DNA of 64,000 nucleotides from an uncultured virus (IMG/VR IMGVR_UViG_3300025033_000013) (IMGVR_UViG_3300025033_000013), one strand, 5' to 3'; counted from the stretch's first letter, positions 1 through 50,504 are shown. The notes: generated by a model not told the origin, from the letters alone. Translations and numbers: made by a program.

Positions 1-189
1 TACCATGTCCCTCGTGTCCAAATTCAACTTTAAAATGCTTCCTAAGTATTTCTTCTTTTCTCATAATAATAATTATTTTAGTGTGTTTTAAATCCGTAAA
101 AAATCGACTCCATATCTGCGATACGTTATGACCAATACTATATTATACGTTCTAATTGGGTTTTTGTTTCAAAACTTTTTAAAAATTTC

Positions 190-666
190 CTACCTTTTAA
201 TTGTTCTAATATTTAAATTCGGATAAGAACGTTTCAAATTATTAATCTCTAACATAGATTCTTCATCACTAATAAGAATTTCTGTAATATATGCAACAAT
301 TCCGTGCATTTCATCAGTTTCAACTATTTCTTCCATTTCCTCATCTATACCGTAATTAAATGGTTTAAAATTCCATTTCTGACTAATTCTACCATAGTCA
401 AATGATATTCTTGCATTATATCTACCATTGCTATCACCAGCATACTCAATATCCCATAATTTTGGATTCCAAGTAAAGGAAATATTATCATATCCTTTAC
501 CATAAATACCATTAAATGAACCAGATTCTAATGAGTCACCTTTCAAAATTGAATATAATGAATCCAAACCATCAGTAAAATGGTATATTGTTTTACCTTT
601 AACATTCTCATTTAGAAATTCTCTGATTGTCGTTTTTATAAAACTTCTTAATTTGTCGTTTTCCAT
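190..666 (-). CDS. cassette protein with IKTTIREFLNE N-terminal motif, possible ADP-ribosyltransferase-like fold
   Basis: 158 aa ORF with YHFT...ISFT pattern; N-terminal motif shared with other cassette proteins. The fold is inferred. Confidence 0.45.
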   Translation of the reverse strand: MENDKLRSFIKTTIREFLNENVKGKTIYHFTDGLDSLYSILKGDSLESGSFNGIYGKGYDNISFTWNPKLWDIEYAGDSNGRYNARISFDYGRISQKWNFKPFNYGIDEEMEEIVETDEMHGIVAYITEILISDEESMLEINNLKRSYPNLNIRTIKR

Positions 667-783
667 ATAAGTAAATACTTTATCTTATATATAAATATTC
701 ATAATTAAATTTCCCACCGCACATTTTTAAAAAGTTTTGTTCAGTGGTTCTAATCGAGTTTTGTGGTAAATAAACCGTACTGG

Positions 784-912
784 TCATAACAAGGTGTATA
801 TGTAATGGTGGTTTCATCTGTAAATCAACGTTAGTTGTTTCTATGAAGTTCAGTGGTTAATCAAAGCTCGGTTCTTTCTATCCACTACTACATATACACC
901 CAACCGTTAGGC
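784..912 (+). repeat. attC-like site (example)
   Basis: TCATAAC-aa-GGTGTATATG ... CATATACACC-caacc-GTTAGGC. Confidence 0.85.
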
Positions 913-1149
913 GCAATTAAGTCGCTTCTCTTCAAGTTTGTTTATCACTTCAACCCATTGGCTGCTTTCAATACCCATTGCCTCGTCTGTATATACTTCG
1001 TCTGCAAATTCCTTAAACTTTTTTGCAAGTTCTATTGCAGCCAATACATTAGCACTTTCTGACAGCTTACCAGTATATGGATTGTGGTCAGAAGATTTCA
1101 TCATTAAGTTCACTAATTTTTTTGTTGTCATAATTTTAAAAATAACTGC

Positions 1150-1279
1150 GCCTAACAATGTATATAGCAAATTGGGGCGCAATTCCAATAAACTACATTT
1201 GTGCTTTTAATTTACTTTTCTGCAAATTAAAAGGGTAGCACATTTTAATCCCCAACTTGCCATATACTTAACGTTGTGC
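1150..1279 (+). repeat. attC-like site (example)
   Basis: GCCTAAC ... GTATATAGCAAATTGGGG / CCCCAACTTGCCATATAC ... GTTGTGC. Both arm mismatches are A.C on the top strand, so G.T on the bottom strand. Confidence 0.85.
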
Positions 1280-1321
1280 TGCATTAAAACGACACCACAA
1301 CAATAAATAAACAACATAAAA

Positions 1322-1588
1322 TTATTTAATGTCATCTAAATATGATTTCACGAGTTCCCAAAAGTCGTGTTGCTCTTGTGTTTGATTACAAACCTCTTTA
1401 TAACCCCATCCGTCAAGAACTGCTAGTTTATTTAGTTCAATAGCTTTATAAGAGCAACACTTGGCTATGCTATAAATATCAGAAGCAAACAATTCTGCTG
1501 CTTCATCAACTGTGTTTTGCATCTCATTAAATAATTCTTCTGCCACCCATTTAGCATGTGAGTGTTTGCTTCCTTTAAATTTTTTCAT
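1322..1588 (-). CDS. hypothetical protein located inside an attC-like loop
   Basis: 88 aa ORF between arms AATAAACAACATAAAATTAT and ATAATTTTACGATTGTTTATT. Confidence 0.7.
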   Translation of the reverse strand: MKKFKGSKHSHAKWVAEELFNEMQNTVDEAAELFASDIYSIAKCCSYKAIELNKLAVLDGWGYKEVCNQTQEQHDFWELVKSYLDDIK

Positions 1589-1643
1589 AAGTCATAATTT
1601 TACGATTGTTTATTATTGTCCGTTATGCTCCATTGCTAAGGAA

Positions 1644-1871
1644 CTACTCCGAATTAGCATTTGTGGTAACATTTTTATTCTTTTCTTCCTTCGCTTTAAA
1701 ATAAGAAACAAGAATGGTTTCAACCATATTATTAAATGATGGTCTATTCGTTTCATCAATTTCCTTATTTATTGCTTCAACTAACCAATCATTTTTGTCA
1801 GTTAATTTTAATGATATTCGCTTTGCCATAATTTTATTTTTGGAAACCACTTTCTGGTTCATAATTATCAT
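1644..1871 (-). CDS. small ribbon-helix-helix-like DNA-binding protein
   Basis: KRISLKL...RPSFNNMVETIL pattern; likely start at MAKRIS. Confidence 0.5.
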   Translation of the reverse strand: MIIMNQKVVSKNKIMAKRISLKLTDKNDWLVEAINKEIDETNRPSFNNMVETILVSYFKAKEEKNKNVTTNANSE

Positions 1872-2208
1872 CTCCCATTGTTTCTATTAAATCTTCACAT
1901 GGTTGAATGTTTGCAATATTAATATTCCAACGTCTTCCATCTACATTACTTTTACAAACAGCATTCACTTTGTTAATTCTTTCGATTACAAAAGTTTCGT
2001 TTTTAATTTTATCACGACCACCAATATATTTAACGGTCATACCAAATTTTAAAACATCCTTGTTTAATTTACCTTCAATTTGCATTTTCAATTGAAGCAT
2101 TTCAGTTACTCTATTTCTTAACTCCCTAAGTTCAGCAACTGATAATTTGTTTAATTCTGAATTTGTCATACCTTTAAATTTTAAGTTGTTTATTAATTTA
2201 TACGTCAA
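1834..2208 (-). CDS. hypothetical protein
   Basis: 124 aa ORF in the same cassette as the RHH-like gene. Confidence 0.7.
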   Translation of the reverse strand: MTYKLINNLKFKGMTNSELNKLSVAELRELRNRVTEMLQLKMQIEGKLNKDVLKFGMTVKYIGGRDKIKNETFVIERINKVNAVCKSNVDGRRWNINIANIQPCEDLIETMGDDNYEPESGFQK

Positions 2209-2478
2209 AGGTAATACTTTTGTTTCAAATTACCTAATAAATTTGCAAATATTTTCAATATATTTTCTAATATGTTGATAATCAATATAATTATTTTCCC
2301 CATCACACAAAAGAATAAAAATGTTTTTAGTGCTTCGATTGAAGGGTTTGAGTAAATTTACCGCAACGAGAGCATAACAACGTGTATATTCAAGTTTGCA
2401 TCAGCATTTGTGCATAATTCAAGGTCTCTACAAGCAAACCTGAATATACACGCAACCGTTAGCCACAATAAAAAATGG

Positions 2479-2781
2479 CTACTGTTCGAGTTCCATTAAG
2501 GCAAGTTTTTTACCTGCATTTCCATCTTTGCAATCGCCCAAGCAATCAGCAATTCCATCATTAAGCCAGTAATGTATTTCCGTCGTTTCTTTACCATTGT
2601 AGTAGCCTGTTCTTACGCTTGGTCTTAGTGTTGGTTTTTCCAAATCACCGTTCCAAGTCCAAGCATTTGTGCCTTCTCGTGTTCCTTTTGTAATTACAGG
2701 AAGTTGTGTTAATCCAATTTCTTCATTTACTTTAAAAGTCAAGTAATCAATTCCGTTATATTTTTCTAGTTTAGCTTTCAT
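2479..2781 (-). CDS. hypothetical protein (WTWNGDLEKPTLRPS motif, DUF6527-like)
   Basis: Recognisable W-x-W-N-G-x-x-x-x-P-T-L-x-P-S motif. Confidence 0.55.
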   Translation of the reverse strand: MKAKLEKYNGIDYLTFKVNEEIGLTQLPVITKGTREGTNAWTWNGDLEKPTLRPSVRTGYYNGKETTEIHYWLNDGIADCLGDCKDGNAGKKLALMELEQ

Positions 2782-5700
2782 TTACCGCTATTTTTAAAAG
2801 TGGGTAACACAGTATATAAAATATAGCTGTTTTCGCTTCCCACTTGGTTAATATTCTATTTATTTAATTCAGCTCTTAATCGTTGCTTTTCGGCTGTTTA
2901 CACGCTACATTTCATATACTCGGCACGTTAGCCACAATACCCTAACTGACATTTAAGCCATTCATTACAATCACTTTCAGTTCCTTGATACACGCAGTGC
3001 CCATTTTGTTCTACTTGGTATGTATTATTTATTAGCCATTTAACCTCGTACTTATCATCTAAGTAAGAAGTACTGTGGCTAACATCAAATAAAACCAATA
3101 AAAGGTTTTTTGCCTGTTCCGTAGTTATTACATCATTGGCAAGTTCATCTGCTATTTTTAAAATTTGTCGTTTCATATCTTTTACTGTTTTTATTTGCAA
3201 AACGTTAGCAAACATTTACACTAACAATATCTCGTCTGCTTTCTAAATCAAGTCTATCAAACCTTTTTTCTACGTCATTTTTATTCTTACCTTCCAAGTA
3301 AGTTGTGTGTAATGGTTCTAAATTTCCATCCATTAAAAATTCAATCTTAAAACGTTTGCTAACAATGTGTATAGCAAATGCCTTTTGTATTCTTTTGATA
3401 ATTTGTTTCATAATTTCAATATTTTGTATTATTAATTAAGTTCTGTGTAGGCACTTGCCATACACTCGTCCGTTAGGCACAATAAAAATTACTACCATTG
3501 CGTAAATACTTGTTCAAATGTGTAATCAAAAAAGTACATCATGTAAAACACTTTGTACCCTATCCAACATATCGCCTGATACATCACTAATCCGAATGTT
3601 AATGGAATTGAATATTTAGATATATCCCACCATGTTATTTCACCCAAATCAGGCAATATTCGCTTTATTACCCACCATGTACCAATTATTGGTATCAGCA
3701 TCTTATAAATATCGTGTTTTACTTTTTGTTCCATATACGTAATTTTTACAGATGCCTAACAGCAAGTATAAAACATGCCTGTCGTGCATCTAAGTTAATA
3801 TTTATGTTAATTTCAAATTCATTGTTCCAATCAAAGTTTGTGTTGGCACGTTTTATACTTGCGTACCGTTAGCAGAAATAAAAATTACTGCTTTCGTGCT
3901 TCAATTTTAGCTTTCCACTTTTCATAACTTATTCGTTCTCGTTCTGCTATTTTACTTGGTGCGTGTTTGCCACAATACCAATTATTATTTTCAAAGTATT
4001 TAGCATTAAACCCACATATTTCATCAGAAAATCCGTTTATCATTTTACTCATAATCTGCCTACTTGTTTTGTCATTTACAGTAGCAGAACAAATATGTTT
4101 TTCTTTCATAATCCGTAATTTTTACTATCTGCTAACAGCGTATATACAAGATACGCCTACAAGCATTTGTTTATAATTGAAATTTCGTTAAGGCGTACCT
4201 TGTATATACGCAAAACGTTGTGCGTAATGCTAAGATTTGCACTTCGGATGCCGTTTTTTGTCTTTAACCCACTCTTTAAACTCTTTTCGATAATAAGCAA
4301 ACTCAACAATTATCCAAGTAGTTTTTATCTGCCTACCTAATTTATCAAGTAGAAGTTTACTTAAATATCCTACTGCTACTACGCTTCCAATTATTGCAGA
4401 AAGCCAAAAAACTACTAATCCAATCCAATAATAAATTTGTTCCATCGTTTTGATTATTAAAGCACTACGCACAACACGCAATATAAAACATGCTGGGTTT
4501 CTGCGTTATTTAAAGTTTCGTTCATTCTATTAAGTTATTAGTAATTTGATAGTTATGTGGTTTCTATTCCACCACGTTTCATACACAACCCGTTACCACC
4601 AATTAAAGGTTCTCAACCATTCGGAGTATTTCTAAAACAGCCTCACCTTTAAAATGGTTTACTTTATATTGTTCATTAGACCATCTTATTTGTTCTGCTT
4701 TTTCTTTTTCAAACCTTGCTTCATCTGAACATCTATTTGGTTTATATTCTTTCTTTTCCCATTCATTTTGTCGTTGTAAATAATTGTTTTTTTCAACTGT
4801 GTAGTGTATTATTTTATCCTTGATTAAGGAAATCATTTTCCATTTCAAATATCCTTTGTAAATTTTAAACATAATTATTAAATTAACTGGTGGTAACACA
4901 GGCTAAAAAACATAGCCAATAAAGTTCCTACCTATTTTGAAACGTGATTACAAGGCTACGTTTCTTAGCCTCATCGTTGTGTGCCATTAACGCAAACGGT
5001 CTTTAACCTCTTGCTCCAATAGTTGTTTTGCTTTTGTTTTGCAAGTATTGCATTCAATGTAAGAGTACATTACACCGTTTGCACACCATTGAAAAGTTTT
5101 ATTTCTGATGTTACTTTTACATATTGGTTTATTATTGCTATCTACCAAATGTGTTTTTGTTGTTGTTTTTGTGTTTGCAAAATATCCAGTTCTCATAATT
5201 CTAAAATTAACGGCACACAACATTGTATATAGTTAATGTACCAATGAAGGTCAGTGCTTAGTTTAATAGTTTGTGGTAGGTGCACTAACCATATACCTGT
5301 CCGTTATAAAACATAAAATTATTAAGCAAAGATTGTTTCTTCGCCTATTTTAAGTTTCCAACCATTATCAAAACACCAATCTTTAATTTCTTCATCTGTT
5401 GCATTTGAAAAGAAACAATCCATAAACTGTTCTCGTGTTCCTTCAAACATATCACCATTTTCAACTACAATCCAAGTTTCTAAGTTCATAATTTTACGAT
5501 TTTATAACAACAAATATAAAACATTTAAATCAAATTTCCAAATATTTTATCACTTATTTTTATTTTTTAATTATTTTTAGTTATTAATCTGAAACTTGCT
5601 GTGTACTTGCACGCAAATTTCCTTACACGCAAAACGTTGGCACACATTTGAAAAAAAAATGATGATTTATAAAAATAGAAATTATTTTAATAATACATTT

Positions 5701-6214
5701 AGATATAAAAAAGTTGATGAAAACACTAATGATTATCATCCTCCTTTCGTTTACTCACAGTCTGACAATTTAATTTCATCAGACATTACATTCCGAATAT
5801 CTTGTCCAACCATTTCCCAATCGGATTTTAAAGCTTTGTAGTCTGCTTCTTCTCCTGATTTTGAAGTGTTAAATTTATTTGGTTCTCCGAAAATGCTTAA
5901 TACATTAGAAAAACCTGTCCAAAAACTTCTCTTTGGAAACAAAAAGTCTGTCCTTTTATCTGTGTCTATCATTTCTAAAAAATTTAATTCCATAATACTA
6001 ATATAAGTGAAATTGAGTGCAAAAGTAAATATTTTTGACTTAAATTATTGTTAATAATACGAAAATAAAATAACTATTGCCAACACCGTATATAAAAAAT
6101 AGCTAAATAAGTGCTAAACTCAATTTGCTTTACTAATTTAATAACGTTATTTTAGTCGGAAAAGTATGTGCTTATTTACACGCTACTTTTCATATACAAG
6201 ACCGTTGTGCTTAA

Positions 6215-6917: not shown

Positions 6918-7121
6918 CTAAAGCACAACATTGATTTGCATTTTTTCATTTACAAGTATTGGACTGAATAAATAGCGTTCCTTAAATGAACTGATTAGCC
7001 TTTTAATGTGCAATTCATTTGGCTTTCTGTTACCAATCAAAGTTTTAAACTTTGAGTAATCCCTACTTGTTTGCACTTGGTTACTATACTTAGCCATTGG
7101 TGCTTGTTTTAATTTATTCAT
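6918..7121 (-). pseudogene. truncated ParB-like N-terminal domain
   Basis: DYSKFK..GNR...PILVNEKMQI ends at the cassette arm, just before the expected DGQHR motif. Confidence 0.5.
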
Positions 7122-8041
7122 TTTATTTATTTGGGTTTTATAACTTCACCTAGAAGTTTTATTTTAATTCTATAAAGGCACTACTGCAAACATCGATTTG
7201 TAAAAATTGCTAATTATGTTTAATTCCATTTGTTCTGGTTTTTTAATTATTTTTATTTATTAATCTGAAAATTGCAGTGTACTTGCACGCAAATTTCCTT
7301 ACACGCAAAACGTTAGTCGCAATTTAAAAACGCCTTAATGTTTGGTAAGTCTCTTATGTGGTCTGCTGCTACTACTTTTCTATGGTACTCCCATCTATAA
7401 TCCTTAATGGCATTTTTATAATGTCTAATTTTCTTAGGTGGTTGCACTCGTCTACTAAAGTTAGTTGCATACATATTCAAACACCAATCTTTCATAGTAG
7501 GTAATTCTTCAGAAATTAAAGCTTGACCTTCTTCGCAGGGGACTAAATAAAAAACCGACCCTAATAAAAGATTTTAGTTCGTTAAGTCTGCTTTCTGCTA
7601 TATAAAAACTTGTGTACATAATTTTCCGTTTTTTTAACTAAGTTTATACTAATCCGTTATGCCTCATTTGCCAACCCACGCTTATGAAAATCATCCTGTA
7701 TCATAAATTCAGTTGTCAAGATATCCCCGTTGCTTATCTGTATCTGAAATTTATTACAGTATTTTAATCTAATTAACTGAATTATTTTACCTCCTTTTCT
7801 TCCAAATCTGTCAGTCCATTTTGGAATGCTTTCTCCTAATCTGAATCCGTAAAGTTTCTTTGTTCGTGTCATTTTTAAAGTTTTATACCACCGCACAAAA
7901 CGAACGCATAACAATGTATAAAAACAATAGGCGTGTCCGTGCAAGTAGGTTGTTTATATTCATTTAATTAACTCTTTCTGGTTGCGAAGTTTAGCGTTTT
8001 AAATCGCCTACTATTCTTATACTTACCGTTAGCCACAAGTG

Positions 8042-8554: not shown

Positions 8555-9100
8555 TTTAAATTTCGTTAATTAAACCGCACCATATGGCTAACATGGTATA
8601 TAAAAAATAGCCTATGAAAGGTCAGTACATAATATCAAAGTCTGTGGTTAGGCTACTTTTCATATACCTGTCCGTTAGCCACCATTTAAGATGAAGTGGC
8701 TTTTACAATATCACGTTCTTTACTTATTTCAAAGTCATAGTGATAGCTTTCGTTTGTCAAATGTGATAGTGCGTAACTAATTCCATTTTGTCTAATATTT
8801 ATACCAGTTACAAGTCTCTCACATTGTTCAGGGTCTGTTTTTAAATAAACACTATCCCCAATGTCAAAATGGAGTATGTGCTTTTCAAAAACGGTGGCTA
8901 ACACTGTATAACCGTAATTGGCTGGTTTAGTGCTTAATCCATCGTCTGTGCTTTTTATTTTACTTTGTTTTTTATCCATAATTTTCGCTTTTAAATCGCC
9001 AACTAGCGGTTATACTTTAACGTTGTAAAACATTAAAACGATTTTACAACACGGTATATAGTTTATGCCTAATTCCGTGCTGTATAAAAGTTTTGTGCTT

Positions 9101-9403
9101 CTAATCTTTTTCTTTTATTTTTTCTTCCTCCCTTAAAATAATATCTCTAAACATAAAAACTTTAGCTACAGATTCTGGCATCATACGAAGTTTGTTTTTA
9201 ATAGCTTCAAAATCTTCCTTCGTTTCAGCACTTTCAATTTCAGCTTTATATAGTTTCCTATAATGTTTTTTAAGTTTATCAATAGCTTTATCTAAAGCAT
9301 CGTCCAATTCGATGTACTTTTTGTTTACCAAATAAGTGCTTTTAGTTATTTTCTTTTCTGAAAGCATTTTATCATTCCAGTCTAAAGTGTATCCACCTCT
9401 CAT
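9101..9403 (-). CDS. hypothetical protein located inside an attC-like loop
   Basis: 100 aa ORF between arms GGTATATAGTTTATGCC and GGCACAAACCATATACC. Confidence 0.7.
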   Translation of the reverse strand: MRGGYTLDWNDKMLSEKKITKSTYLVNKKYIELDDALDKAIDKLKKHYRKLYKAEIESAETKEDFEAIKNKLRMMPESVAKVFMFRDIILREEEKIKEKD

Positions 9404-10438
9404 AATTTTAGTTCTTTTGCCCTCGCTAAAAAAATAAAAGAAAAAGGGCGGTTAATAATTAAAAGGTTCGTTTTTCAAAAGGCACAAACCATATACCTAT
9501 CGTTATAAGCAATAAAAATTAAACATACACCGCTACTACTGCTAATATCACATCTCCACCACCAAGCCAAGTTTTTGTTTCTAATCGCTTTTCAAGTTCT
9601 TTAAACGTAAATTTTGTAGCATAAAATTGATTGCTCCAATCTTTATTTTTATCATCCCAAAACTTGTCTTTTGTTTTATTCCAAATTACCCAATTCATAA
9701 GTTTAATTTTTACAGCTTATAACAAAGGCTAAAAAGCAATTGCAACTAAGCGTGTTATCAAGCAGTATTTGTTATAGGCAACTGCTTTTAGCCTCAACCG
9801 TTACCCACCATTTGAAGAACGTACTTTCACAATACTTCCGTCAGGCATAAATGCAGGTACAGGAACTACATCACGCTTTCTACCTGTATATCCACATTCA
9901 TGGCATCCACAACCTTTTTGTGGTGTTTGTTGCATTTCTTTTTGTTCTGCACATCCACTACAAGCGTGGCTATACTTGTAAGGGTAAACTAATTCACCGC
10001 AAAACTCTTCCCATTTATGCCTTTTGTCAAGTTTTAGTTTTTTAACGGCATCAGCCACCGAATCAAAAACGGTGGGTAACACTGTATATACGTCAGTTGC
10101 AGTTTGGTGCTTATTCGATACTTTTTCCATTCTATTAAGTTTTCTTTTAAATTGATACGTTCGTGCTTCTAATCGCAACCGAACGCATATACTTCCCGTT
10201 ATGCACAAGTGGCTACATCCGTTTCCTTTTTCAACTTTAGTCCTAATTCATCAGGCTCTAAATAAAATACAGGTGCTCGAAAACCACAAGCACACCATAC
10301 ACCATAGCAATCTTGATAACCTTCTGGTCCGTGCAGTTCGTGTCCACTTTCCTTTTCTAAATGCGAGTATGGGCATTCGTATTTACTGTAATCTGCTTTA
10401 TTTTTCATAATATTTGTCTTTTAAGTCCGCCACCAGAT

Positions 10439-10502
10439 GCATAACAGCACCTAAATCGCAACTCCGCTACGCTCCGCAGCGTTTAGCTGCATCACGTTAT
10501 AG
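10439..10502 (+). repeat. short (~64 bp) attC-like site
   Basis: GCATAACAGCACCTAAATCGC...GCGTTTAGCTGCATCACGTTATAG; size and layout match a classical minimal attC. Confidence 0.85.
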
Positions 10503-10508
10503 CCAATA

Positions 10509-14880: not shown

Positions 14881-14934
14881 AGGTAACAAGGTATAAACCA
14901 CATTAAAACGATGGTTTATACCCGTCCGTTAGCC
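14881..14934 (+). repeat. minimal attC-like site with CATTAAAACG loop
   Basis: AGGTAACAAGGTATAAACCA-CATTAAAACGA-TGGTTTATACCCGTCCGTTAGCC; the same loop occurs in the site at 21988-22041. Confidence 0.8.
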
Positions 14935-16675
14935 ACCATTTGAGAAACGTTCTTTATAATAAGTTTCCCCATCTCTTGGAGCATCTATATTACACCTAGA
15001 TTTACATCCATTATTTACGGCATCAACTATTTGCTTTTTCTCTTTGTTCAACCAAATTTGAATATCTGCATCTATATTATTTCTCAAAGGGTCATTCAAA
15101 CTTGTATAAGTTTTAATATAATCAATTAATTCTTGTACTACTGTCATAATAAAAAAGGTTTCTAACAATGTGTATAAAAAATAGCCTAATTAAGTTTTGT
15201 AATAATTCCGAACGCCTATGTATGGGCTAATTTTCATACACTCGTCCGTTAGCCGTAATTCAATCACGCCATGTTACGTGCATTGCTTCGAGCTTATCTC
15301 CGAGCAGTGGCGAACCATAGTTTTCAAACTTCATTTTTAATAAAGGATATACTTCTAAATTGTTTGGGCATTGTATTTTAAATGGTAGCTTACGTTTATC
15401 TTCCGAAATCTGTAATGCCTCTAAAATGAAGTCATTCAAACTTTTTTCTTCATCAGATGAACTACGGCTAACATCGTATAAAAAAACATTGCCAGCTTCA
15501 TCGGTAATTTTAAATTCGTATTTCATATCAAGTTTATTTTAAGTTTAACATTCGTGTTTCAAAATGGCAACGTTTCTTATACGTAACCGTTATGAGTAAT
15601 GCTAATTATCCCTTTCAAAAGTCGATTTTCCTTTTAAATTCGTTCCGAAAATTTCATTTAAAGGGTCAATAACATCTTGAGAAACTCCCATTAATTTTAA
15701 TCTTAAATTAGAAATTTCAGTAGTCATTTCTCTTTCCCTTTTTGAAGCATTTCTAACAACTTCATTTAACCCTTCATATCTAAATTCTGCGTGTTCATAA
15801 TTTTGCTTAAGTAGTGTAACACTTTTTAAAATTGTCCATTTATGAAAGAATTTTGGAACTCTTTTATAATACCACCAAAATAAAATGTGATTTGCTTTTA
15901 ACAACACCGCACTACTCATAACAGTGGTTATAAGCAATTGCCACTTTTGTCTTAAATTTAAAGACCGTTTTGTTCTTGTTTTCATTGTTTATTAATTTGA
16001 AGTTTAGGCAGTTTTATTGGCAACTGCTTATAGCTACAAAACGTTATAAATAATAAAAATTATTACCTAAGTATATCAACATAATAATTATCGTTATCAT
16101 AACCATATTGCTTCTTTGCAGTTTCTGCTTCTTCTTTTGTATTATATGGTGCAAGTATCACACCATTCTTATCTTTTCCATGTGCAGGTTCTTTTTCATA
16201 AACTGCAAATTGTTCTTTCTTTTTATACATAATTTTTACATATTTATAACAACAAATATAAGCAATTATTTCATTACTTTTAATAAATATTGTTGTTTAA
16301 TAATATTTTTACTCTTTTAATTAAGTTTAGTTAATAACTACTTATATTTGCAACCGTTAGCATTCAGCTTAAAATGCTCCGAGATGCCGTAGAGTTGAAT
16401 GAGTTCTTTCTTTATCTAACTCTAAATTCTTGCGTTCAATATCTCCTAAGTCTGTCTGAGATAGTTTTTCAACAACATAACGCCAATAATGATTTAAAGC
16501 ATCAATTGTTATTTCTGTTTGCCAATCGTTCAATTCATTCATATTTTTAAATATTATTGTTTAACAAAAGCCGAAATGCTAACAAAGTGTATAGCAAATA
16601 AGCCATTAAAGTTTGTACTAATTTGATAGTTTCGTGCGTGGCTTACTTGCCATACACTAAACGTTAGCACCAATA

Positions 16676-17209: not shown

Positions 17210-19305
17210 TATCTATTTGTTAAGTTAATTCTCTGTTCACGCAACACGCCATAAACTTTTCGTTAGTGGCAAGGCTAAAGAACGACCTAAATATCTTCAC
17301 CACGTTTCAATCTTTTAATTTTGTGTTGCAATTCATTGATAGTAACAAGATGAAGTTGAGAATTAACTCTTTCAAATCGTTCTTTAACTTCTTGAGATTT
17401 CCAGTCTTTCAGTTCTTTTTTCAGTCTTTTAATTTCGTCTGTCATTTTAATTTTTTTTGTGAAAAGCCCAGCCACTAACAGCGTGTATATGCAAGTGGCG
17501 GTTCTGTGGTTTATTCAAGTTTAGTTCTTCTGTCAAACTTTCTGCGTAATTGAAAAGTTAGAGCTTCTAATCGCCCCCCTGACATATACACGCAAAACGT
17601 TAGGCACAATAAAAATTACTCAGTTTGTCTTACTATCATTGAAGATAAAACATTAATAATATCAGTGCTTGTTAATTCACATTTAGGTTCTTCTTCACTT
17701 TTATAGTCTAATATAACTTTGAGAAGTTTTATCTTCAATTCTTCTTTTGCTCTAAATTTCATCATTTGTTTGTCTTGGTCTTTCATATCCGTAATTTTTA
17801 CAGATGCCTAACAGCAAGTATAAAACATGCCTATCCTGCATCTAAGTTAATATTTATGTTAATTTAATGTCCATTGTTTCAATCAAAGTTTGTGTTGGCA
17901 CGTTTCATACTTGCGTAACGTTATATTCAATTTTGGGGAAACCATTGTGTATCTGTTAATTCAGACCGCATCCTTCTCAGATGGCAAATAGTTCAAGGAG
18001 TTTTACTGAAACTCATCCCCAAAACTGAAATATAACAACAAATATAAAACATTGCTGTCGTTTTTCAATTATATTATACGTTTAATTTCAAATTTTGTTA
18101 CACTAATTATAATTTTTGTTACAACGTTTTATATTTGCAACCGTTATGTGCAAGCCTAATTAGCGTCATAGTCAGCTTTTGGCTCAGGTTTCCAATCGCC
18201 ATCAGCATCTAAATGAATAGGCGGCCAACCATGTTTCCTAACCATTAACATTCTCATAAACCTGCTCCACATTTTTACCAAACCGTTTACAGCAAAATAG
18301 GCCGCTCCGTTTAGTAATATCATCATTCCTACAAATGGCCAAAAGCCACTAAATGCGATTTCAATTATTTTGTTTATCATTCTATTTGAGTTTTTGAGAA
18401 GGCCAGCACATAACAGCACTATGGCGGGTTTCTCGGTTAATATTAAGTTTAGTGTTTCAAATCAAGTTAAGTGCTTACAGATAGTTCAGCGTTCCAAAAT
18501 CCGCCACATCGCCTATCTGCAAACCGTTAGCACCAATGCCATCAGACCTTCGTATCGACAGCAAAACAGTAAGATAATTCTTCTGCTAATTGCCTCATTT
18601 GTTCATACTCATCATCTTTTAATCCTTCATTGGTGTATGTCATATAAAGTTCTTTCATTTTAGAAAGCCTTACTAATTCTTCTTCGGAAATGTTATCGGG
18701 TAATTTTACTGTTTTTGCCATTGTATTTTTATTTAAGTTTTAATATTTAATTTCGTGTAGGCACTGGTGCTAACACTATGTAAAAAACATTGCTGGCGTT
18801 CGTGTTCCTTCCCAAACAATCCATATTCTTCTTGTTCGTGCAGTTTTCCAAATAGTTCTTCATTCATATCGCAACGATTTTTTACATTTTTCCGTTATAA
18901 GCCATTTAAGAAACTACACGTCTTTTCATAAAGCAAGTCGATAGCTACTTGTTTAGCATCATAAGTTTGGAAACGAACATCTGAACCTCTTTCTGCTTTT
19001 TCATTAGCTATATCCATTGCATCTATAAATAATTTCAATTTGGTAATACTATAATCCTTTATAGCTTCTTTTACTTTGTTATCTGGTATTTTATTATACA
19101 TTTTATTTAAAATTTGTGAAGAAAAACGGCTTATAACAGCACCTAACCAAAATTGGCGGTTCAGTGGTTATATCAACGTTTATGCTTCGATTATACATTT
19201 TTTTTAAATTCAAGTTTTGTGCTTCGTAATCGCCAACTTCGGTTAGCTGCAAATCGTTGTAAAACATTAAAACGATTTTACAACAAAGGCTATAAATAAT
19301 AAGGC

Positions 19306-19494
19306 TTAGGTTCGTGGTTCATCAGGTAAAGCCATCCACCAAGTTTCATCCTCATTACTGTATTTAATCATCTTCGTATCAAGGATGCTTATTGCCATAC
19401 TCGCTTGGCTTTCATTCATTATTCTGTAAACCAACATCTTTTCACCATCAATCTCGCAAGATGGCTTTCGGTCTTTTAATTTAATCCATTTCAT
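19306..19494 (-). CDS. DUF551-like small phage protein inside an attC-like loop
   Basis: MKWIKLKDRKP...TWWMALPDEP. Confidence 0.65.
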   Translation of the reverse strand: MKWIKLKDRKPSCEIDGEKMLVYRIMNESQASMAISILDTKMIKYSNEDETWWMALPDEPRT

Positions 19495-22112
19495 AATTCA
19501 AAGTTTTGTGTTTTAAAATCGCCTTACTATTCATAGCCTATCTACGTTAGTGGCAAGTGCTAACTCTCCGCTTCAATTCAGCTTTGTAGTCTGAAAAATT
19601 AAGTTGGCTTTTAGCTTCTTTGCCATAATAAGTTTCCTCATCATACCACATATCTTCAGCACACGAGCCACCGCCCATTCCTACCGTTAATCCTTCCTTT
19701 GCTTTCCGTTCAATCCATTTAATGATATTTTTCAAGTGATTCGTTTCTAAATCAGTCAACTTAATTTTTTTACCATCTTTTGTTTTATGAAATTTCATTT
19801 TCGTTTAATTTACCGCACCAGCCACTAACAGCGGTTTGGTGCTATTATTTTACCTATTAAATTTATCTAAAACTTGAAATGTCTGCAAGGCAAAATAACA
19901 GACACCAAGCCGAAAAACGTTGTGCAACATTAAAACGATTGCACAACACGGTATATAGTTTATGCCTAATTCCGTGCTGTATCAACGTTTAGTGCTTCTA
20001 ATCTTTTTCTTTTATTTTTTTCCACCCCTCTCAAGATTACGCTTAACAATTCTGTAATTATCGTTTTCAAATTCTTCTTTTTTCAGTCTGCTAAAATGGT
20101 ACTCTAAACTTTGCTTATCAAGTTCAGTAATTTCTTCACACATAACAGGCAAAGAGTCGAGAATATTCTCGGCTCTTTTGTTTGCTTATTTAAAAACCAG
20201 TAAGCCATTATTCAAAAGTTCTTGTTTCGATTATACAGTTTTTAAATTTTTCTGGGTCTTCGTCAATTAAGCTTTGTAAATAATCTTTATCCTCTTCCAT
20301 TTCAGGTTCCCAATTATTAGGATAAAATTTCATTTCTATTGTATCAAAGCTTTCGTCTGTTTTTGTGTTTAAGATGTAATGTAAAGTTTTCATAATTTTG
20401 TGTTTTAAATTGTTATTAATTAATTATTACACTACAAATATATAACTTATTTTGTAACTACCAAAGAAAAAAGCAAAATATTTTAATTATTTTGTAAATA
20501 ATTGCTTTTACAAGCATTTGCCCACGCTCAAAAAAAATAAAAGAAAAAGGGCGGTTAATAATTAAAAGGTTCGTCTTTCAAAAGGCAAATAACCTAATTC
20601 AGTATTTAACCCAATGTGTTTTTCGAATATTTACTCTGCTTCTGTCATTTCATTAAAGTTTATTATTATTAAATCGCACTAACCATACAACCGATACGTT
20701 ATAACCAATACTACTTATCCGCTTCGATTGTAGATAATAATTCATTAACCATTTCATCAACCAAAGAGATACCATGTAAGTCTTTAGTTTTTTTATAATC
20801 ACCCACATTGATGTTTGTAGCTTTGATTTCTTTTTCATCATCACTAATAGTGATTTTAATTGTTAAATTTTCCATTTTACTTGTTTTTAATTTTATCATT
20901 TATTATTTTTGCTAATTCATAATCTTCATTATCAATTGCGTTTTTTAGTTTGGTTTCTAAACTCCTTGGTATTATAACTGCAACTAAAAAAGAACTATCT
21001 ATCTTAATTATAACATCATCACCATTGTTAATTCCATCAACTATATCATTTCTATCTACTTTACAAGTATCATCTATTGCGTAGATGTTTCCGTTTAATT
21101 TAAAAACATTTACTTCGGTAAAATAAACATTATCATTTTCAATATAAAATATATCTGAAGTGTAATTTTGTTTTTCATTACCAAATATTAATAAACTATT
21201 ATCCATAAATTAATTTGTTAATGTCATTTCGTTAATTACTTTTCTAACGCTTTCCATCCAAGCACCTAATATATCTTTTCTAAAATTAAAAATAGACATA
21301 TGTGCATCCCAAATTTCTTTTGGAACTTCTACTTTAATAATTCTTCTATTCTCCATAATTCATTATTTTACAAATATACTAATTATTTTCCAATTAATCA
21401 AGTTTTATCTTAAATTACCGTACTGGTTATAACAAGGTGTATAAGAAAGTTTGCTATTAACAGTGTGGTAATTTGAAAGTTTATACAAGCAAACCTTCTC
21501 ATACACCCAACCGTTAGCACCAATACTACGAAAGTGCTTCGATTTAAAGTTTATTGCTATATTTTGTAAAAAATCCATCACTACCAATTCTTAAAGTATT
21601 AACAATTTCTTTATGTCCACGAAAATCAATAATTTCAACATCTTCTTTGTTTCTATCAATGTAAACCCTTATCGGCTCATCATTTTTATAAAAATTAAAA
21701 AAATGTTCTACGGTTAAATTTTCGTTATGATGGATTATTTCATCATTAGGTATTATAAACACATTGTCACACTCTTCTAAAATTACGCCAACTTGTGGGC
21801 TAATAAATAAACACTGTACATCATCACTAATCATTTCAGTAATTAATGGTTGTAACTCATTTTTAATTGCATCTTTTTTATTGGTTTTTTCAAACCAGTT
21901 CCATTGTTTTTCCATAAATTTATTTTTTTTACAAATATACTAATTATTATCCATTTAATCAAGTTTTATCTTAAATTACCGTACTGGTGCTAACAACAAA
22001 TATATTGCATTAAAACGACAATATATTTGCAGCCGTTATGCTCCATGCCTTAGTTCAGTCCTTCTATTTAACATTTGTGATGAAAAACAAAAAGAATTTT
22101 CCCAACGCACTT

Positions 22113-22700: not shown

Positions 22701-24079
22701 AGTATTTTCTTTATATATATAAATATTCCAAATTAAAATTTCCACCCTAAAATTCTTTTTGTTTTTCTTTATTGTTCCAAATTAAGTTTTGTGCTTAATA
22801 ATTCGGCACGAGAGCCACAATACCCTAACTGACATTTAAGCCATTCATTACAATCACTTTCAGTTCCTTGATACACGCAGTGCCCATTTTGTTCTACTTG
22901 GTATGTATCATTTAATCCAATCCTTATACATTTCACTTTCCCTGTGTGCTCTTACCATATTAGTTTTTCCACATCTGCATTGTGTTACTAGAAAATTTGT
23001 ATTGTTTTCCATAGGTATATCATACAATTTATTTTCAAATTTACACTTATGAAAACGATACATAACAGCATATAACCAAAATAGCGGGTTAGGTATGTTA
23101 ATTGTCCATTTTTCTTTCATATCAAGTTTATTTTTATATTCAACATTTGGTTTTAAAGTCCGCTACTTAGGTTATATGCAACCCGTTATACACTATTTAA
23201 CGAGCAAGTTTCAATTCAACAATAAATATTTCAACTGTTTCCTTTTCCAAATCATATAAATTCTTAGGATGTTTACTGTTACAGCACTTATCAATAAAAG
23301 AATCTATTTCATCTTGTGATGGTTTGTTAATGTAAGCGTTTTTACTATAATATTTGGTTTTTCCATCAAATGAAGCATATTTTCCTTTTGCACAAATTTG
23401 ATATAAAACTGTGCCTAACACCGTGTATAAAACATGGTGGGTTTCTGCGTTATTTAAAGTTTCGTTCATTCTATTAAGTTATTAGTAATTTGATAGTTTC
23501 GTGCGTGGCTTACTTGCCATACACTAAACGTTAGCACCCATTTGACCAATCATCAATATCCTCATCTTCAACTAATTCAATCTGACTATTACTATCTTCT
23601 ATTATTTTATTCAACATACCTAATCCATAAGAAGTTGCAGTTCCATAACTCTTTTTATGACATTTGTAGCAACTACCGCTAAAACCGATAAAATAATAGA
23701 AATCAGCATCTTGTTCAACTTTTTCAATTCCAGAATTTAACTTCCACCTGTCACCATTTAAATAATCACCACTCCAAGTTCCAAAAACTTTATAATAATT
23801 GTTTGATAGTTTTAATATTACCCACTTTTCAGGGGTTTCGGTTATATTTCTTTTCATAATTTTAATTTTTAAAAACGTGTTATAACAAGGTATATATGCA
23901 AGTGGGAGTTCTGTTGTTTATTCAACATTCGTTCTTCTATCAAACATTCTGTGTAATTGAAAGGTAAGTGCTTCTAATCGCCACCTGGCATATACACGCA
24001 AAACGTTATGTGTAAGTGTTCAGTTCATCGTTCTAACCAACATTTCGGTTGAAAAATTTAAAAGAAAATCCCACCCACT

Positions 24080-24640
24080 TTATTTAATTCTTTTTAATTT
24101 GATTTTATCATAATTCCATATAATTATTTGATGACCATCTCTGCTATAATATGGTTCTTTGCCATCAAAGCCTTTTGATTTTAAATATTCTTGTTCTAAA
24201 AAATCAATACTACTACCAGTCATCGGGTCTATATATGTTGCATATTTTTTATATTTATCAGTTTCAATAGGTCTAATTAAATCATTCCCATCTAAATTCT
24301 TAACAACATCACCATTAGGTTTAATTACCTTATCCATTTCATAAAACCCATTTTTAATTCCAAAATCAACGAGTTGTTCCCTATTTGGTTGTTCATTTGG
24401 TTTGGCTATTCTTAATTCCTCAAAATTTTCTATTACATATATATAATCACGTTTTCCAATAGATTCTATACCCCAATCATCAATATTTTTTGTTACATAA
24501 AAACCTTTACCCAATTGTCCTTGTTTCGGGTTATAGTTTTTATCAATTTTTAAATTTGGATTATCGGATAAATGATAAACTCTATTCTCATTCAAAAATT
24601 CTCGCATCGTTGTTTTTATAAATTGTTTCAAATCTTTCAT
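24080..24640 (-). CDS. cassette protein with IKTTMREFLNE motif, ADP-ribosyltransferase-like
   Basis: VYHLS...GQLGKGFYVT...LKSKGFDG...QIIIWN pattern typical of ART-like phage domains. Confidence 0.55.
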   Translation of the reverse strand: MKDLKQFIKTTMREFLNENRVYHLSDNPNLKIDKNYNPKQGQLGKGFYVTKNIDDWGIESIGKRDYIYVIENFEELRIAKPNEQPNREQLVDFGIKNGFYEMDKVIKPNGDVVKNLDGNDLIRPIETDKYKKYATYIDPMTGSSIDFLEQEYLKSKGFDGKEPYYSRDGHQIIIWNYDKIKLKRIK

Positions 24641-24767
24641 TGTTTCAAATCTTTCATTGTTTTATTTTTTCTCCCACCACACAAATTTAAGAAAAAATGT
24701 TATTATCCCCAATATCCCAAGTTCCATCATTATCAACCGATTTAATTTGATTTGGTTTAAATGTAAC

Positions 24768-24980
24768 GTGAACTACCCACCCACGCCAGAGGCGATGGGT
24801 TGGGCTTCGGGGGTCACAGACTCACCTAATGGTAACGCCTCATCCCGTTTTTGTTTATACTCCGACTGCATACCACAACCAGAGTTAATAAAAATATACA
24901 ACTTTATTTTTAAAAGTCAAATCTTTTTGTCGCTTACATCCCATTCACGCTAAAGCGATGAATGGGTTTTACGCTCCTTT
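24768..24980 (-). mobile_element. IS200/IS605-derived MITE inserted into an attC-like left arm
   Basis: Right end GTGAACTACCCAC and left end hairpin CCCATTCA..TGAATGGG-TTTTACGCTCC; near-identical to 44088-44300. Confidence 0.9.
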
Positions 24981-25066
24981 ATAAAACATACCCAATCAAG
25001 GTCTGTGGTTTATATCAACTGTTTACTATGGCTACGTTTCATACACACAACCGTTAGCTGCAAGTG

Positions 25067-26812
25067 CTACGTTCCCGTTTTCAATGATGGTTCGTGCATA
25101 TAAGCCGTAATAATATTTTTTTCTTCCCCACGCTCTTTGTCTGCTTGGGCAGCCATTTGGTTAAATATGTGAGTAATCATTCCAACTTCCCAACCATTAC
25201 CAGTCGCTTTTACTGTTTGGTTATCACTTATCTCATCACAATAATTGTCAGGCAAATTCATCAACCTACACCTTTCAATTTTATTGTAGTTCCTAAATGG
25301 TAATTTCCTATTAAAAGCGTCAGGGTGTCGCCCTATTTCCATTGTCGTTAAAACCGTGTCTTTTGCTACGGTAGTAAGGCAATTACTTTTATCTCGATTA
25401 GTTGCTCTTACTTCAAGGCATTGCGTAATTGGTATGGTTTTGTCATAATCTTGTCGTTTACCTAGTTCATCTAATCTACGCCCTAAAATAGTGGCTTTAT
25501 TCAATCTTCTGCCACGTATCGCACTTGGGCCAATCATTTCAGTATCTTCCAAAATATCTTCAAGTCCTATTCCTTTGTCGGTTGGTTCAGTAATATCGAA
25601 GTTTGCCCAATACAATCTCACACGGTTTTGAGCAGAAGTTAAAGAACTATTCAATTTTACTGGCTCAACACCCAAATGTTGGCTTATTACGTCTTGGTAT
25701 TCTTGCTTCATTACCACATTTTCAAGTAGCCAGTATTTAGGCTTCACTTCATTAAGCAACCGAACAAATTCAAAGAATAGTTTACTTCGTGGGTCTTCAA
25801 AGTTCAATTGCTTACCACTAAAACTAAATCCTTGGCAAGGAGAACCACCACATAAAAGGTCTATTCTTCCTTTAAATACGTTTAATCCTCCCTCATACTC
25901 AACCACCGTGACTTGTTCCTCCTTATGAAGTCGTAAGAAATCCCAGTAATTCTTTTCAATTTTGTCAACTTCATCCCATCTTTGTAATTCTTTGATAATT
26001 TCTTCAATAGAATTAATCTCTTCTTCTTTTCGGTCTCTTTCTTTTTTCTTGACCTCTCTTCGTAATCTATCTTCATCCGACTCTCCAAGTATTTCTTTCT
26101 CACTTCTGGAGTCCGCATCGCTTCTTTGGTTTTCTTTGAAATTAAATCCCTCTCCTTTTTGTCTTGAAATCTTTTCTTCAATGTTTGTGATATTCTCTTT
26201 TTCTGAATATCTGTCTTTGGCACTCCCTTTTGACTCTCTAATATTTTCTTGCAAATTTCGGGTGTGAAACTCATAGTCATACCCCCAGCTGCTACATTGT
26301 AGTTTAAAGGGTTTTCTACAATCATTTTCATCTCCATTCTTTCTGCTTCCTGTATTGTTCCTACCTTTAGTAATACTTCCCATACTATTGTTTGAAAACC
26401 GTATTTCCTCAATGCATTGTAAAGTGGTAAATTCTTGTACTTCTTGTCCTTCATTCGACTTTTGTGTTCCGACTTTCGTTGACATAGCGTATTTCTTGTC
26501 AAGCCAATATAATATTTCCCATTCGGAAATTTTGCTTTGTAAATTGTTATCATAATTGCAAATATACGAATAAACCTCCGATAAGTAAAGTAATTTTACT
26601 TTTACTTTGGTTACATCACCAATCTGTTTTGTATTTGGGTGGTTGCTTTGAGTTACCTTAATTGCGTGTTTGTCAATCTCGGAAGCAAAGTATTTATTTA
26701 CTTTAATTCCTGCACGTTCTAAAGCTACTTGTCCACAACTAATGCCATCAAATAAAGACAGTACGTTAATGCCCTCGCTCAAAAAAATATTATTACTACG
26801 TTCGTTTTTCAT
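25067..26812 (-). CDS. DNA (cytosine-5)-methyltransferase with ~243-codon in-frame insertion
   Basis: Motif I at the N-terminus; GGSPCQGFS, LLENV and GNGW follow the insert at ~25871-26599. Confidence 0.85.
   Translation of the reverse strand: MKNERSNNIFLSEGINVLSLFDGISCGQVALERAGIKVNKYFASEIDKHAIKVTQSNHPNTKQIGDVTKVKVKLLYLSEVYSYICNYDNNLQSKISEWEILYWLDKKYAMSTKVGTQKSNEGQEVQEFTTLQCIEEIRFSNNSMGSITKGRNNTGSRKNGDENDCRKPFKLQCSSWGYDYEFHTRNLQENIRESKGSAKDRYSEKENITNIEEKISRQKGEGFNFKENQRSDADSRSEKEILGESDEDRLRREVKKKERDRKEEEINSIEEIIKELQRWDEVDKIEKNYWDFLRLHKEEQVTVVEYEGGLNVFKGRIDLLCGGSPCQGFSFSGKQLNFEDPRSKLFFEFVRLLNEVKPKYWLLENVVMKQEYQDVISQHLGVEPVKLNSSLTSAQNRVRLYWANFDITEPTDKGIGLEDILEDTEMIGPSAIRGRRLNKATILGRRLDELGKRQDYDKTIPITQCLEVRATNRDKSNCLTTVAKDTVLTTMEIGRHPDAFNRKLPFRNYNKIERCRLMNLPDNYCDEISDNQTVKATGNGWEVGMITHIFNQMAAQADKERGEEKNIITAYMHEPSLKTGT
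25882..26553 (-). CDS. GIY-YIG homing endonuclease nested in an alternate frame of the MTase
   Basis: TIY...YYIGLT..R..EH...LYNALRKYG...E...YNV motifs, followed by NUMOD3-like basic repeats. Confidence 0.85.
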   Translation of the reverse strand: MITIYKAKFPNGKYYIGLTRNTLCQRKSEHKSRMKDKKYKNLPLYNALRKYGFQTIVWEVLLKVGTIQEAERMEMKMIVENPLNYNVAAGGMTMSFTPEICKKILESQKGVPKTDIQKKRISQTLKKRFQDKKERDLISKKTKEAMRTPEVRKKYLESRMKIDYEERSRKKKETEKKKRLILLKKLSKNYKDGMKLTKLKRITGISYDFIRRNKSRWLSMRED

Positions 26813-27071
26813 ATCAAAGTTTTTTGTTTAAAATCCGCACCAGACATTAAGTATTCTTTGATTATTGTTTTTATAAATTTTCTCAATTCCATTTGTCCTT
26901 TATTTTATATATAAATATTCCAAATTTAAAATTCTACTAATAAAGCGTACTGGGCTAACAAATTGTATAAGCAATAACTGTTAGATGTTTTTACTATTGC
27001 TGTTGTTAATATTATATTTTCTACATCTAATCAATTGTCCTGTGTTACTTTTCATTTTTGTATTTATCTTA

Positions 27072-50503: not shown

Positions 50504-50504
50504 T

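Follow-up and report, generated by a model that had tools for sequence, protein, structure and literature searches.

A 64,000-nucleotide (nt) stretch of DNA from the uncultured virus IMGVR_UViG_3300025033_000013, hereafter the window, carries at positions 125-27010 a dense array of gene cassettes bounded by imperfect hairpins, delimited by anchored search, cassette-end pairs and a boundary count; its sites point along the plus strand, and its cargo genes lie on the minus strand. This array is a real system, a variant of the integron kind, and probably represents the distal 27 kb of an integron-like platform of ~31 kb and roughly 55-60 cassettes in a large phage, the hosts of which are probably Bacteroidota. 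Read on the reverse strand, the window corresponds to bases 29,028-93,027 of an IMG/VR virus record of 93,027 bp labelled 'linear', and because it reaches the record's last base, window position 1 is a contig end. Leftward of this point the array carries on for 4.2 kb in L133 and L135, metagenome contigs that overlap the window, comprising seven further hairpins and one cassette for an N6/N4 methyltransferase, and it ends in GTTGTAGGCAATGC, ~50 nt from the start codon of a 269-amino-acid (aa) tyrosine recombinase encoded on the minus strand (L135:4930-5739; PF00589 at 6e-30). A preliminary interpretation based on the window alone (the sequence-only reading) had proposed an array of at least 27 kb, which is confirmed for the window and now extended beyond its left edge. 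It had also suggested that a distinct tyrosine recombinase might be encoded to the left or by the host, and advised searching the upstream contig for an IntI/Xer-like gene and an attI; that search yielded the Xer-like gene and an attI-like site on L135. Integrons have been regarded as devices of bacteria whose hallmark is IntI with its additional domain; here, a platform of this kind occurs in a phage, beside a shorter enzyme of a different family.

Whole-cassette exchange at a three-base core is directly evident at the strain level. Contig L134, an 8.1-kb piece of a strain variant, is identical to the window at positions 1-127 (100%), 903-3207 (99.9%) and 3867-5357 (100%), while window 128-902, one cassette, is replaced by 1.2 kb of other cassettes, and window 3208-3866, two cassettes annotated at 3207-3867 (+) from the strain comparison, is replaced by 2.4 kb of others. 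At all four junctions identity starts or stops at GTT, and the variable sides are unlike one another, so that the unit-wise exchange at G|TT on which the sequence-only reading had staked its interpretation was found at every breakpoint. Comparisons within and between arrays gave the same result. Positions 3715-3871 and 17767-17923 share a gene start, an AAC arm and a hairpin at 90% identity, which stops at GTT; similarity to other phage arrays begins inside a unit, passes through AAC and the hairpin, and typically ends at GTT, as at window 4219, 12444, 19258, 19921 and 21516. For instance, the hairpin at 21431-21515, together with 85 nt of its left flank, is 92% identical to locus L064, with identity ending at GTT. 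Since the unit ends form an inverted repeat, the pattern alone reads alike on both strands, and such comparisons are needed to place the crossover; because they end at GTT, a cassette on the plus strand reads TT, cargo in reverse orientation, AAC, hairpin, G.

A second natural comparison was provided by cultured phages. The closest homologs of the recombinase in the phage collection are the 'integrase' of Cellulophaga phage Ingeline and those of Polaribacter phages Freya_1 to Freya_10, whose genomes measure 43,978 to 48,920 bp, and Freya_10 carries cassette-type sites upstream of its 'integrase' gene in the same layout. Around a 4.9-kb block of cassettes that only Freya_10 possesses, the flanking sequences of Freya_1 and Freya_10 agree at 100% and 99.9% identity. 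The Freya_1 junction reads ...TATAGGGGT|GTT|GTAAACA..., while Freya_10 reads ...TATAGGGGT|GTT|AGCAACA... beside the recombinase gene and ...CATATCC|GTT|GTAAACA... at the far side of the block, which separates the first cassette from an attI-like ..GGGGT|GTT located ~50 nt from where the recombinase gene starts. As both junctions fall at GTT, whole cassettes sit exactly at the attI-like site; the event may have been a gain in Freya_10 or a loss in Freya_1. These phages share the design and differ by cassettes, so a laboratory model is already at hand.

Homologous recombination between conserved hairpins, operating without a site-specific enzyme, has been proposed for the promoter early stem-loop (PeSL) motifs of T4-type phages (PMC2839356, PMC4122927), and could be invoked here as well, because hairpins of the same length class are 75-93% identical within and between arrays and could serve as homology patches. 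This explanation is quite unlikely, as the four L134 junctions and both Freya junctions lie at GTT with unlike variable sides, and as the A.C polarity and spacer asymmetry described below are kept relative to GTT in phages and bacteria alike, which homology alone would not maintain. The array is also not enriched for sigma-70-type promoters (86 against 95 expected, Bacteroidota-type promoters being outside the range of the tool) or for intrinsic terminators (12 against 8.3 expected).

The sites obey a strict grammar. On the plus strand each hairpin runs from AAC through 1-3 spacer bases, a stem, a loop, the returning stem and 5-6 spacer bases to GTT, and the hairpins fall into length classes of 46, ~85 and ~112-126 nt. 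An anchored search of the whole 93 kb for AAC...GTT units with pairing inner arms identified 37 clear short hairpins, which span 788 to 24,007, and elsewhere in the 93 kb only weak chance matches appeared. Five long hairpins raise the number of well-formed ones in the window to 42, with 49 distinct GTT boundaries, the remaining sites being degenerate half-sites. The dense array reported previously is thereby upheld, with a lower count than the 'about 54' attC-like hairpins first given. In 20 strict units, GTT plus seven bases (N7) is perfectly complementary to the N7 plus AAC of the same unit; this pairing of cassette ends reaches 14 bp, its sole mismatch lying at position 11, always with a plus-strand A opposite C, and no strict pair occurs in the other 65.5 kb of the contig. 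More generally, when a hairpin's GTT flank is compared with the AAC flank of the hairpin that follows, on average 5.3 of 7 variable positions match, and all seven do so in 14 of 41 pairs; against its own AAC flank the average is only 2.8 of 7. The claim that the AAC end pairs with the GTT start of its own unit was accordingly sound, and the four pairs quoted for it (125/781, 906/1147, 4592/4888 and 4976/5212) are all exact.

The hairpins are asymmetric between strands. Across the 37 short hairpins, 629 Watson-Crick pairs and 95 mismatches were counted, 51 of the latter being A.C on the plus strand, in agreement with the A.C-on-top mismatches noted before; transition mismatches that turn into wobbles number 55 on the minus strand and 10 on the plus strand. 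Summed DNA folding energies are -405 kcal/mol for the plus strand and -472 kcal/mol for the minus strand. Because A.C on the plus strand corresponds to G.T wobbles on the minus strand, the bottom (minus) strand folds better and is probably the recombining one. The interruptions of the stems are 1x1 mismatches at conserved places rather than bulges, so that the remark in the sequence-only reading that many arms have no obvious extrahelical base fits A.C mismatches and an uneven spacer standing in place of bulges. In 14 aligned hairpins, compensatory changes occur at 13 of 14 consensus stem pairs, and the 85-nt class conserves its loop sequence as well. The loops of this class (e.g. window 11690-11700 and 15195-15205) contain TAAGTTTG-like words on the plus strand, which resemble the Bacteroidota -7 promoter motif but point away from the cargo. 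Rfam at gathering thresholds returned only tRNAs, and relaxing it to E values up to 10 over window 1-30,000 added two chance microRNA matches, neither on a hairpin; the suggested Flavo-1 motif does not match the sites.

Some cassettes are reduced to their ends, and others hold their cargo in an unexpected place. The motif CATTAAAACGA occurs six times, always on the plus strand and within the array. In four cases it forms the tiny loop of an 'empty' body, two 14-base cassette ends joined directly without cargo: these empty R hairpins lie at 1273-1301 (found by motif search) and 9022-9050, both annotated with the loop ATTAAAAC, and at 19256-19284 and 19919-19947. In the two other cases it is the loop of minimal 46-nt L hairpins at 14885-14930 and 21992-22037 (motif search; loop again annotated as ATTAAAAC). 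After three of these four empty bodies comes an L stem with a gene inside its loop: 1299-1624 with gene 1322-1588 (long-hairpin search), 9048-9504 with gene 9101-9403 (9053-9071 pairing with 9481-9499), and 19282-19548 with gene 19306-19494. The fourth, 19919-19947, is followed by an L'' arm with a degenerate partner arm. Cargo can therefore occupy either loop of the two-stem structure.

The enzyme beside the array is, as judged from profiles and alignments, a XerA/XerC-like tyrosine recombinase with all six catalytic residues and without the insertion typical of IntI. R131, K156, H217, R220, H243 and Y252 are invariant in an alignment of the recombinase and ten homologs (11 in total). The recombinase profile gave a single end-to-end match to the XerC-like 4a8e and to XerA 5hxy (E 3e-44 to 3e-52), whereas its alignment to IntI4 (2a3v) was broken in two, 79 IntI4 residues standing opposite 31 positions of the profile, a split which indicates that the IntI-specific insertion is absent. 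The best NCBIfam model was archaeal XerA, at 136 bits for this enzyme and 136-194 bits overall against a cut-off of 220; the integron-integrase model TIGR02249 scored 72 bits here and 72-159 bits overall (cut-off 265), and PRK15417 scored 32-105 bits (cut-off 435). Falling below every NCBIfam equivalog cut-off, the recombinase belongs to no named Xer family.

Relatives were collected with a 15-base motif from the empty cassettes, which retrieved 126 IMG/VR loci, many of them chance matches; 15 distinct other contigs carry at least two strict cassette-end pairs. A recombinase homolog lies within the fetched ±8 kb in seven of these 15, its end and strand being constant throughout, and the recombinases of most of the seven are 44-79% identical to one another. 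Four of five records searched in full contain exactly one PF00589 gene, located in the array locus. In phage loci the recombinase occupies the cargo strand at the GTT-proximal end, with the same end and strand in 10 of 10 loci examined; measured in three loci, its distance to the first GTT is 37-52 nt. Beside the recombinase start, ten phage loci have a conserved ..ATATA..|GTTA site, which has its counterpart in L135; an attI-like site beside the recombinase with cassettes lying there, one of the defining traits of integrons, was thus found. In LR745206.1 (L001), a 635-kb uncultured phage, a few cassettes of this type lie at 19,000-21,000, and one 46-nt site there is 95.5% identical to window 14865-14931.

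These associations bear on the possibility that the sites are ordinary attC sites, forming a cluster of attC sites lacking an integron-integrase (CALIN) served by the IntI of a host, with the Xer-like gene being an unrelated phage integrase or dimer-resolution enzyme. The short cores YAAC and GTTR do occur at 42 of 42 sites; IntI1 recombined 5 of 6 attC sites from virulent phages, one of them a Polaribacter phage (PMC9892861); and Bartlau et al. interpreted the Freya gene as a lysogeny integrase (PMC8776804). Such an arrangement is nevertheless unlikely, given that the Xer-like gene keeps its place (37-52 nt away from the first GTT where measured), that the extra Freya_10 cassettes lie exactly between the recombinase gene's upstream site and the first cassette, and that Bacteroidota chromosomes have the same recombinase-array pairing. 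The 93-kb record alone lacks an integrase, but in the overlapping contigs a tyrosine recombinase other than IntI stands at the end of the array. In the available part of the IntegronFinder 2.0 study, the counts for Bacteroidetes comprise In0 elements and only one complete integron, in Salinibacter (PMC9024848), so host IntI appears rare in the phylum.

A scan of one genome per species with the recombinase alignment returned 80 bacterial loci, most of them from Flavobacteriia and other Bacteroidota. At least two signature cassette ends were found on the recombinase strand in 16 of the 80 and on the other strand in one. Flavobacterium, Lutibacter and Xanthomarina carry their arrays immediately downstream of the recombinase gene, with recombinase and cargo on the same strand. 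The bacterial sites keep the same polarity, with 56 A.C mismatches in 38 hairpins, transitions favouring the minus strand by 63 to 8, and spacers of 1-3 and 5-6 nt. Their cargo is on the plus strand in 26 of 32 units, while in nine other phage loci 42 of 55 units have it on the minus strand; of 20 window units, 13 carry cargo on the minus strand and one on the plus strand, and six have no open reading frame (ORF) spanning half their length. Measured against the polarity of the sites, phage cargo is therefore inverted, and the earlier statement that all genes are inverted holds in the sense that the cargo strand is opposite to that of bacterial arrays with the same site type.

The same comparison weighs on a reading of the hairpins as RNA structures in a polycistronic transcript, concerned with processing or stability, in which complementarity of the unit ends is ordinary covariation. 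In the phage the better-folding strand, with its G.U wobbles, is the coding strand; the stems covary; and homologous cargo occurs with different yet still paired N7 arms. In the bacterial arrays, by contrast, A.C mismatches fall on the coding strand under the same polarity, and since transcription is opposite in bacteria and phages, the conserved feature follows GTT and the spacers, not transcription. RNA structure would further leave whole-unit replacement at GTT and the adjacent recombinase unexplained, and the hairpins match no Rfam family. As a complete account it is very improbable, although the hairpins may have an added RNA role.

Taken as an integron variant, the platform has the following layout and proposed operation. 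On the plus strand a cassette starts with TT, seven variable bases, A and three bases, followed by the minus-strand cargo gene; it continues with three bases, C, the complement of the seven bases, AAC and 1-3 spacer bases, and closes with the imperfect hairpin (46, ~85 or ~112-126 nt), 5-6 spacer bases and G. The 269-aa XerA/XerC-like recombinase is the candidate enzyme that would recombine the hairpin sites at G|TT, acting on folded single strands, of which the better-folding bottom strand would be the recombining one. Excision would yield cassette circles in which the paired 14-base ends lengthen the hairpin, and cassettes would be inserted at the attI-like site beside the recombinase's own gene. 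Phage cargo lies on the bottom strand, pointing to the recombinase and in the same direction as the phage's other genes.

A broader proposal, for which the case stands evenly balanced, is that these arrays constitute a second, IntI-independent integron lineage, common to Bacteroidota chromosomes and phages, with a compact XerA-like recombinase, folded single-stranded sites and a strand choice encoded by A.C/G.T mismatches. Phages would carry cargo on the recombining strand and maintain arrays of up to ~60 cassettes as an accessory library open to rapid exchange, probably for anti-defence, and an excised cassette would be a dumbbell with cargo in either loop. The XerA-like enzyme lacks the domain thought necessary for attC chemistry, so that the need for the IntI domain on folded sites and the coding of strand choice become testable questions, as does the renewal of the many small accessory genes of large phages.

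Several observations weigh against the reading as an integron variant with its own recombinase. Strict 7-mer attC cores (RYYYAAC / GTTRRRY) occur at only 3 of 42 sites, and no bulged extrahelical bases were seen in the stems on the R''-L'' arm. The 93-kb record has no PF00589 match, and tblastn of it with three array recombinases found none, so the link between array and recombinase depends on the two overlapping contigs L133 and L135; no recombinase was found in the fetched DNA (±8 kb) of 8 of the 15 other array contigs, and this phage's enzyme is only 27-32% identical to other phage-array recombinases. The hairpins 17476-17602 and 23883-24008 are 86% identical with flanks that differ on both sides, a pair that strict one-sided exchange at GTT alone does not explain. 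Bacteria and phages share no cargo (comparison of 46 bacterial units with 177 from phages gave 0 pairs at E 1e-8), and the empty cassettes and loop-nested cargo have no worked-out origin.

Compared with classical integrons, including sedentary chromosomal ones such as that of Vibrio, the array shares a tyrosine recombinase gene and an attI-like site at its end, single-gene cassettes with AAC...GTT imperfect palindromes, crossover at G|TT, an AAC arm matching the start of its own cassette, one better-folding strand, and whole cassettes at the attI-like site. It differs in that the enzyme lacks the IntI insertion and stays below IntI model cut-offs, that the cassette ends pair over 14 bp with a fixed A.C mismatch, and that strand asymmetry stems from A.C/G.T and an uneven spacer (1-3 vs 5-6 nt) instead of bulges. 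Furthermore, where integrons place cargo on the top strand followed by attC and read it from a promoter at the attI end, cargo here sits on the bottom strand (13 of 20 window units), directed toward the recombinase; it can also sit in a hairpin loop with the cassette body left empty, and the replicon is a phage. In Treponema-type 'inverted' integrons, a true IntI is co-oriented with the cassettes. The chromosomal loci of Bacteroidota resemble these in having recombinase and cargo on the same strand, while the phage arrays flip both relative to site polarity. XerA and XerC-like proteins (5hxy, 4a8e) are the best end-to-end matches and of comparable size, ~265-290 aa; Xer resolves chromosome dimers at one duplex dif site, whereas the gene here adjoins hairpin arrays.

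Among phage systems, the CALINs described by Qi et al. in 2023 are 17 small clusters in the portion of the text available, with attC-type sites in virulent phages, including a Polaribacter phage, and DNA methyltransferase cargo (PMC9892861); the present arrays differ by ~55-60 cassettes over ~31 kb, a dedicated non-IntI recombinase, inverted cargo and turnover between strains. The PeSL cassettes of T4-type phages are likewise small accessory genes of unknown function shuffled between repeated stem-loops, and their shuffling is ascribed to recombination between repeated regulatory motifs (PMC2839356), unlike the present breakpoints at a 3-base core, adjacent dedicated recombinase and pairing cassette ends. 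The accessible portion of the Freya paper by Bartlau et al. contains neither the word 'cassette' nor the word 'hairpin' and takes the gene as a sign of lysogeny (PMC8776804). A literature search found no description of the recombinase-array pairing, inverted cargo or nested cargo.

The cargo consists largely of proteins without recognizable domains. Among 16 proteins scanned with Pfam, eight were cargo proteins, of which two are C5 methyltransferases and six had no match; of 54 small cargo proteins, 49 had none, the other five matching DUF6527, a UVR motif and, in three cases, models under the curated cut-off. A PHROG search of five larger cargo proteins found no match. Three DNA methyltransferases are present in the cargo, two in the window and one in the left extension, in keeping with a function in the evasion of host restriction. 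The cassette-1 protein has homologs in four other phage arrays at other positions, where the N7 arm reads ATACACA in place of ATGACCA and is still paired. Another homolog, at 56% identity, lies in the 501-kb viral contig L002, with no hairpins around it.

The individual cassettes of the window can be followed from its left edge. At positions 1-64 (-) the contig end truncates a cassette gene for an 81-aa protein, leaving its 5' end; the whole ORF (L135:9819-10064) has no Pfam match, and this cut gene was considered as the recombinase and rejected once the full ORF was seen. Cassette 1 (126-906, +, cassette-end pair) reads TT-ATGACCA-A, gene, C-TGGTCAT-AAC, hairpin, G, and encodes a 158-aa protein (190-666, -). 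At window 1121, T replaces the C of the genome record, and L135 agrees with the window.

The L hairpins described next all lie on the plus strand and, unless otherwise marked, were identified by the anchored AAC..GTT search and DNA folding. In the first 10 kb they lie at 788-908 (121 nt), 1154-1275 (122 nt), 2376-2460 (85 nt), 2806-2929 (124 nt), 3081-3206 (126 nt, its GTT at 3204 being a strain breakpoint), 3361-3474 (114 nt), 3758-3870 (113 nt), 4134-4219 (86 nt), 4895-4978 (84 nt), 5219-5305 (87 nt), 6082-6206 (125 nt), 7910-8030 (121 nt), 8590-8676 (87 nt), 8900-9024 (125 nt) and 9721-9802 (82 nt). The hairpin at 4475-4592 has mismatched halves, the left (4482-4554) being 98.6% identical to 23426-23498 and the right different, as if two sites had been joined within the loop.

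Beyond the hairpin at 10078-10200 (123 nt), a cassette body at 10496-11660 (+) carries a C5 DNA methyltransferase gene (10509-11594, -) and is followed by hairpins at 11658-11744 (87 nt), 11866-12058 (193 nt, long-hairpin search), 12360-12444 (85 nt), 12611-12730 (120 nt), 14025-14077 (53 nt), 14259-14382 (124 nt) and 14493-14688 (196 nt, long-hairpin search). The series continues with 15164-15250 (87 nt), 15470-15591 (122 nt), 15920-16045 (126 nt), 16248-16358 (111 nt), 16581-16665 (85 nt), 17477-17601 (125 nt), 17810-17922 (113 nt), 18034-18145 (112 nt), 18772-18896 (125 nt), 19135-19258 (124 nt), 19827-19921 (95 nt), 21431-21515 (85 nt), 23064-23187 (124 nt) and 23884-24007 (124 nt). The last large cassette (25056-26860, +) consists of GTTAGCTGCAAGTG and then the gene of a 581-aa C5 methyltransferase-domain protein (25067-26812, -); the cassette has a degenerate R'' arm and no hairpin before it, AAC-C-GTT standing at 25049-25058. 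A truncated last site at 26937-27010 (+), with an R''-like GTACTGGGCTAAC and an L'' arm and no clear L' or R', closes the array distally.

An IS200/IS605 element lies 0.9 kb past this end, comprising TnpA (27907-28311, -; Y1_Tnp, 1.4e-33) and TnpB (28459-29655, +; OrfB_IS605 with a Cas12f-like TNB domain). As TnpA is an HUH enzyme acting on single-stranded hairpins, the array hairpins could be conceived as its substrates, a notion encouraged by a 218-bp derivative with both ends of the insertion sequence (IS) inside a cassette (24768-24985). The notion has almost no probability, because a TnpA/TnpB homolog is present in 0 of 16 other array-bearing phage loci, IS copies and small derivatives are scattered over the whole contig, and the arrays associate with tyrosine recombinases instead; the element was rejected as a chance neighbour. 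Further members of the family, TnpB-like genes among them, lie at 57777-58181 (-), 58328-59446 (+), 56509-57138 (-) and L219:6754-7956. The ~218-bp repeat recurs at window 24768-24985, 44088-44305 and 52543-52760, at contig 92657-92869 (window orientation) and at L134:5772-5989; one copy thus lies within a cassette and another in a variant cassette block of L134. The match between its ends and those of the IS copies makes a small non-autonomous derivative the probable explanation.

The replicon itself is viral and not a bacterial chromosome, as the sequence-only reading had supposed, with ~30% G+C and nearly all genes on the minus strand. The same reading's term 'jumbo' is not borne out by the 93 kb of the record or the 162 kb of the phage's longest contig. 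Metagenome contigs of 161,968 and 112,047 bp carry this phage, a single difference being seen over 10,038 bases, and the larger runs beyond both the array end and the record end; the genome therefore measures at least 162 kb, and the CheckV estimate of '100% complete' for the 93-kb record is wrong. A circular contig was also rejected, since the joined ends lack a terminal repeat and the cut gene is not continued at the other end. Sequencing runs containing this sequence come from aquifer and groundwater and from one hot-spring assembly. A near-identity search of the phage collection gave one 67-nt match for window 1-25,000 and none for window 30,001-55,000.

Outside the array the record encodes two sigma factors, RNA-repair enzymes, HNH endonucleases, DNA ligase, RNA ligases, endonuclease VII and polymerase-like genes. 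A PF03237 search of the record for terminase found no match, and a scan of the 44 larger ORFs revealed no structural gene, so to judge by its genes the record resembles the non-structural portion of a large phage genome. The two sigma-70-family factors are at 30911-31765 and 46990-47865 (-). Fifteen tRNA genes form three clusters within 46816-62373, all on the minus strand, and the RNA-repair set, comprising RNA ligases, a 2'-phosphotransferase and a phosphatase (window 38299-41389, -; L219:10268-11230; L220:1856-2815), fits a tRNA-rich phage. Finally, a 535-aa ORF at 32875-34482 (-) matches deoxynucleoside monophosphate kinase and has NUMOD4/HNH endonuclease domains in mid-protein, and it resembles a kinase gene that a homing endonuclease has invaded or that has been fused to one.

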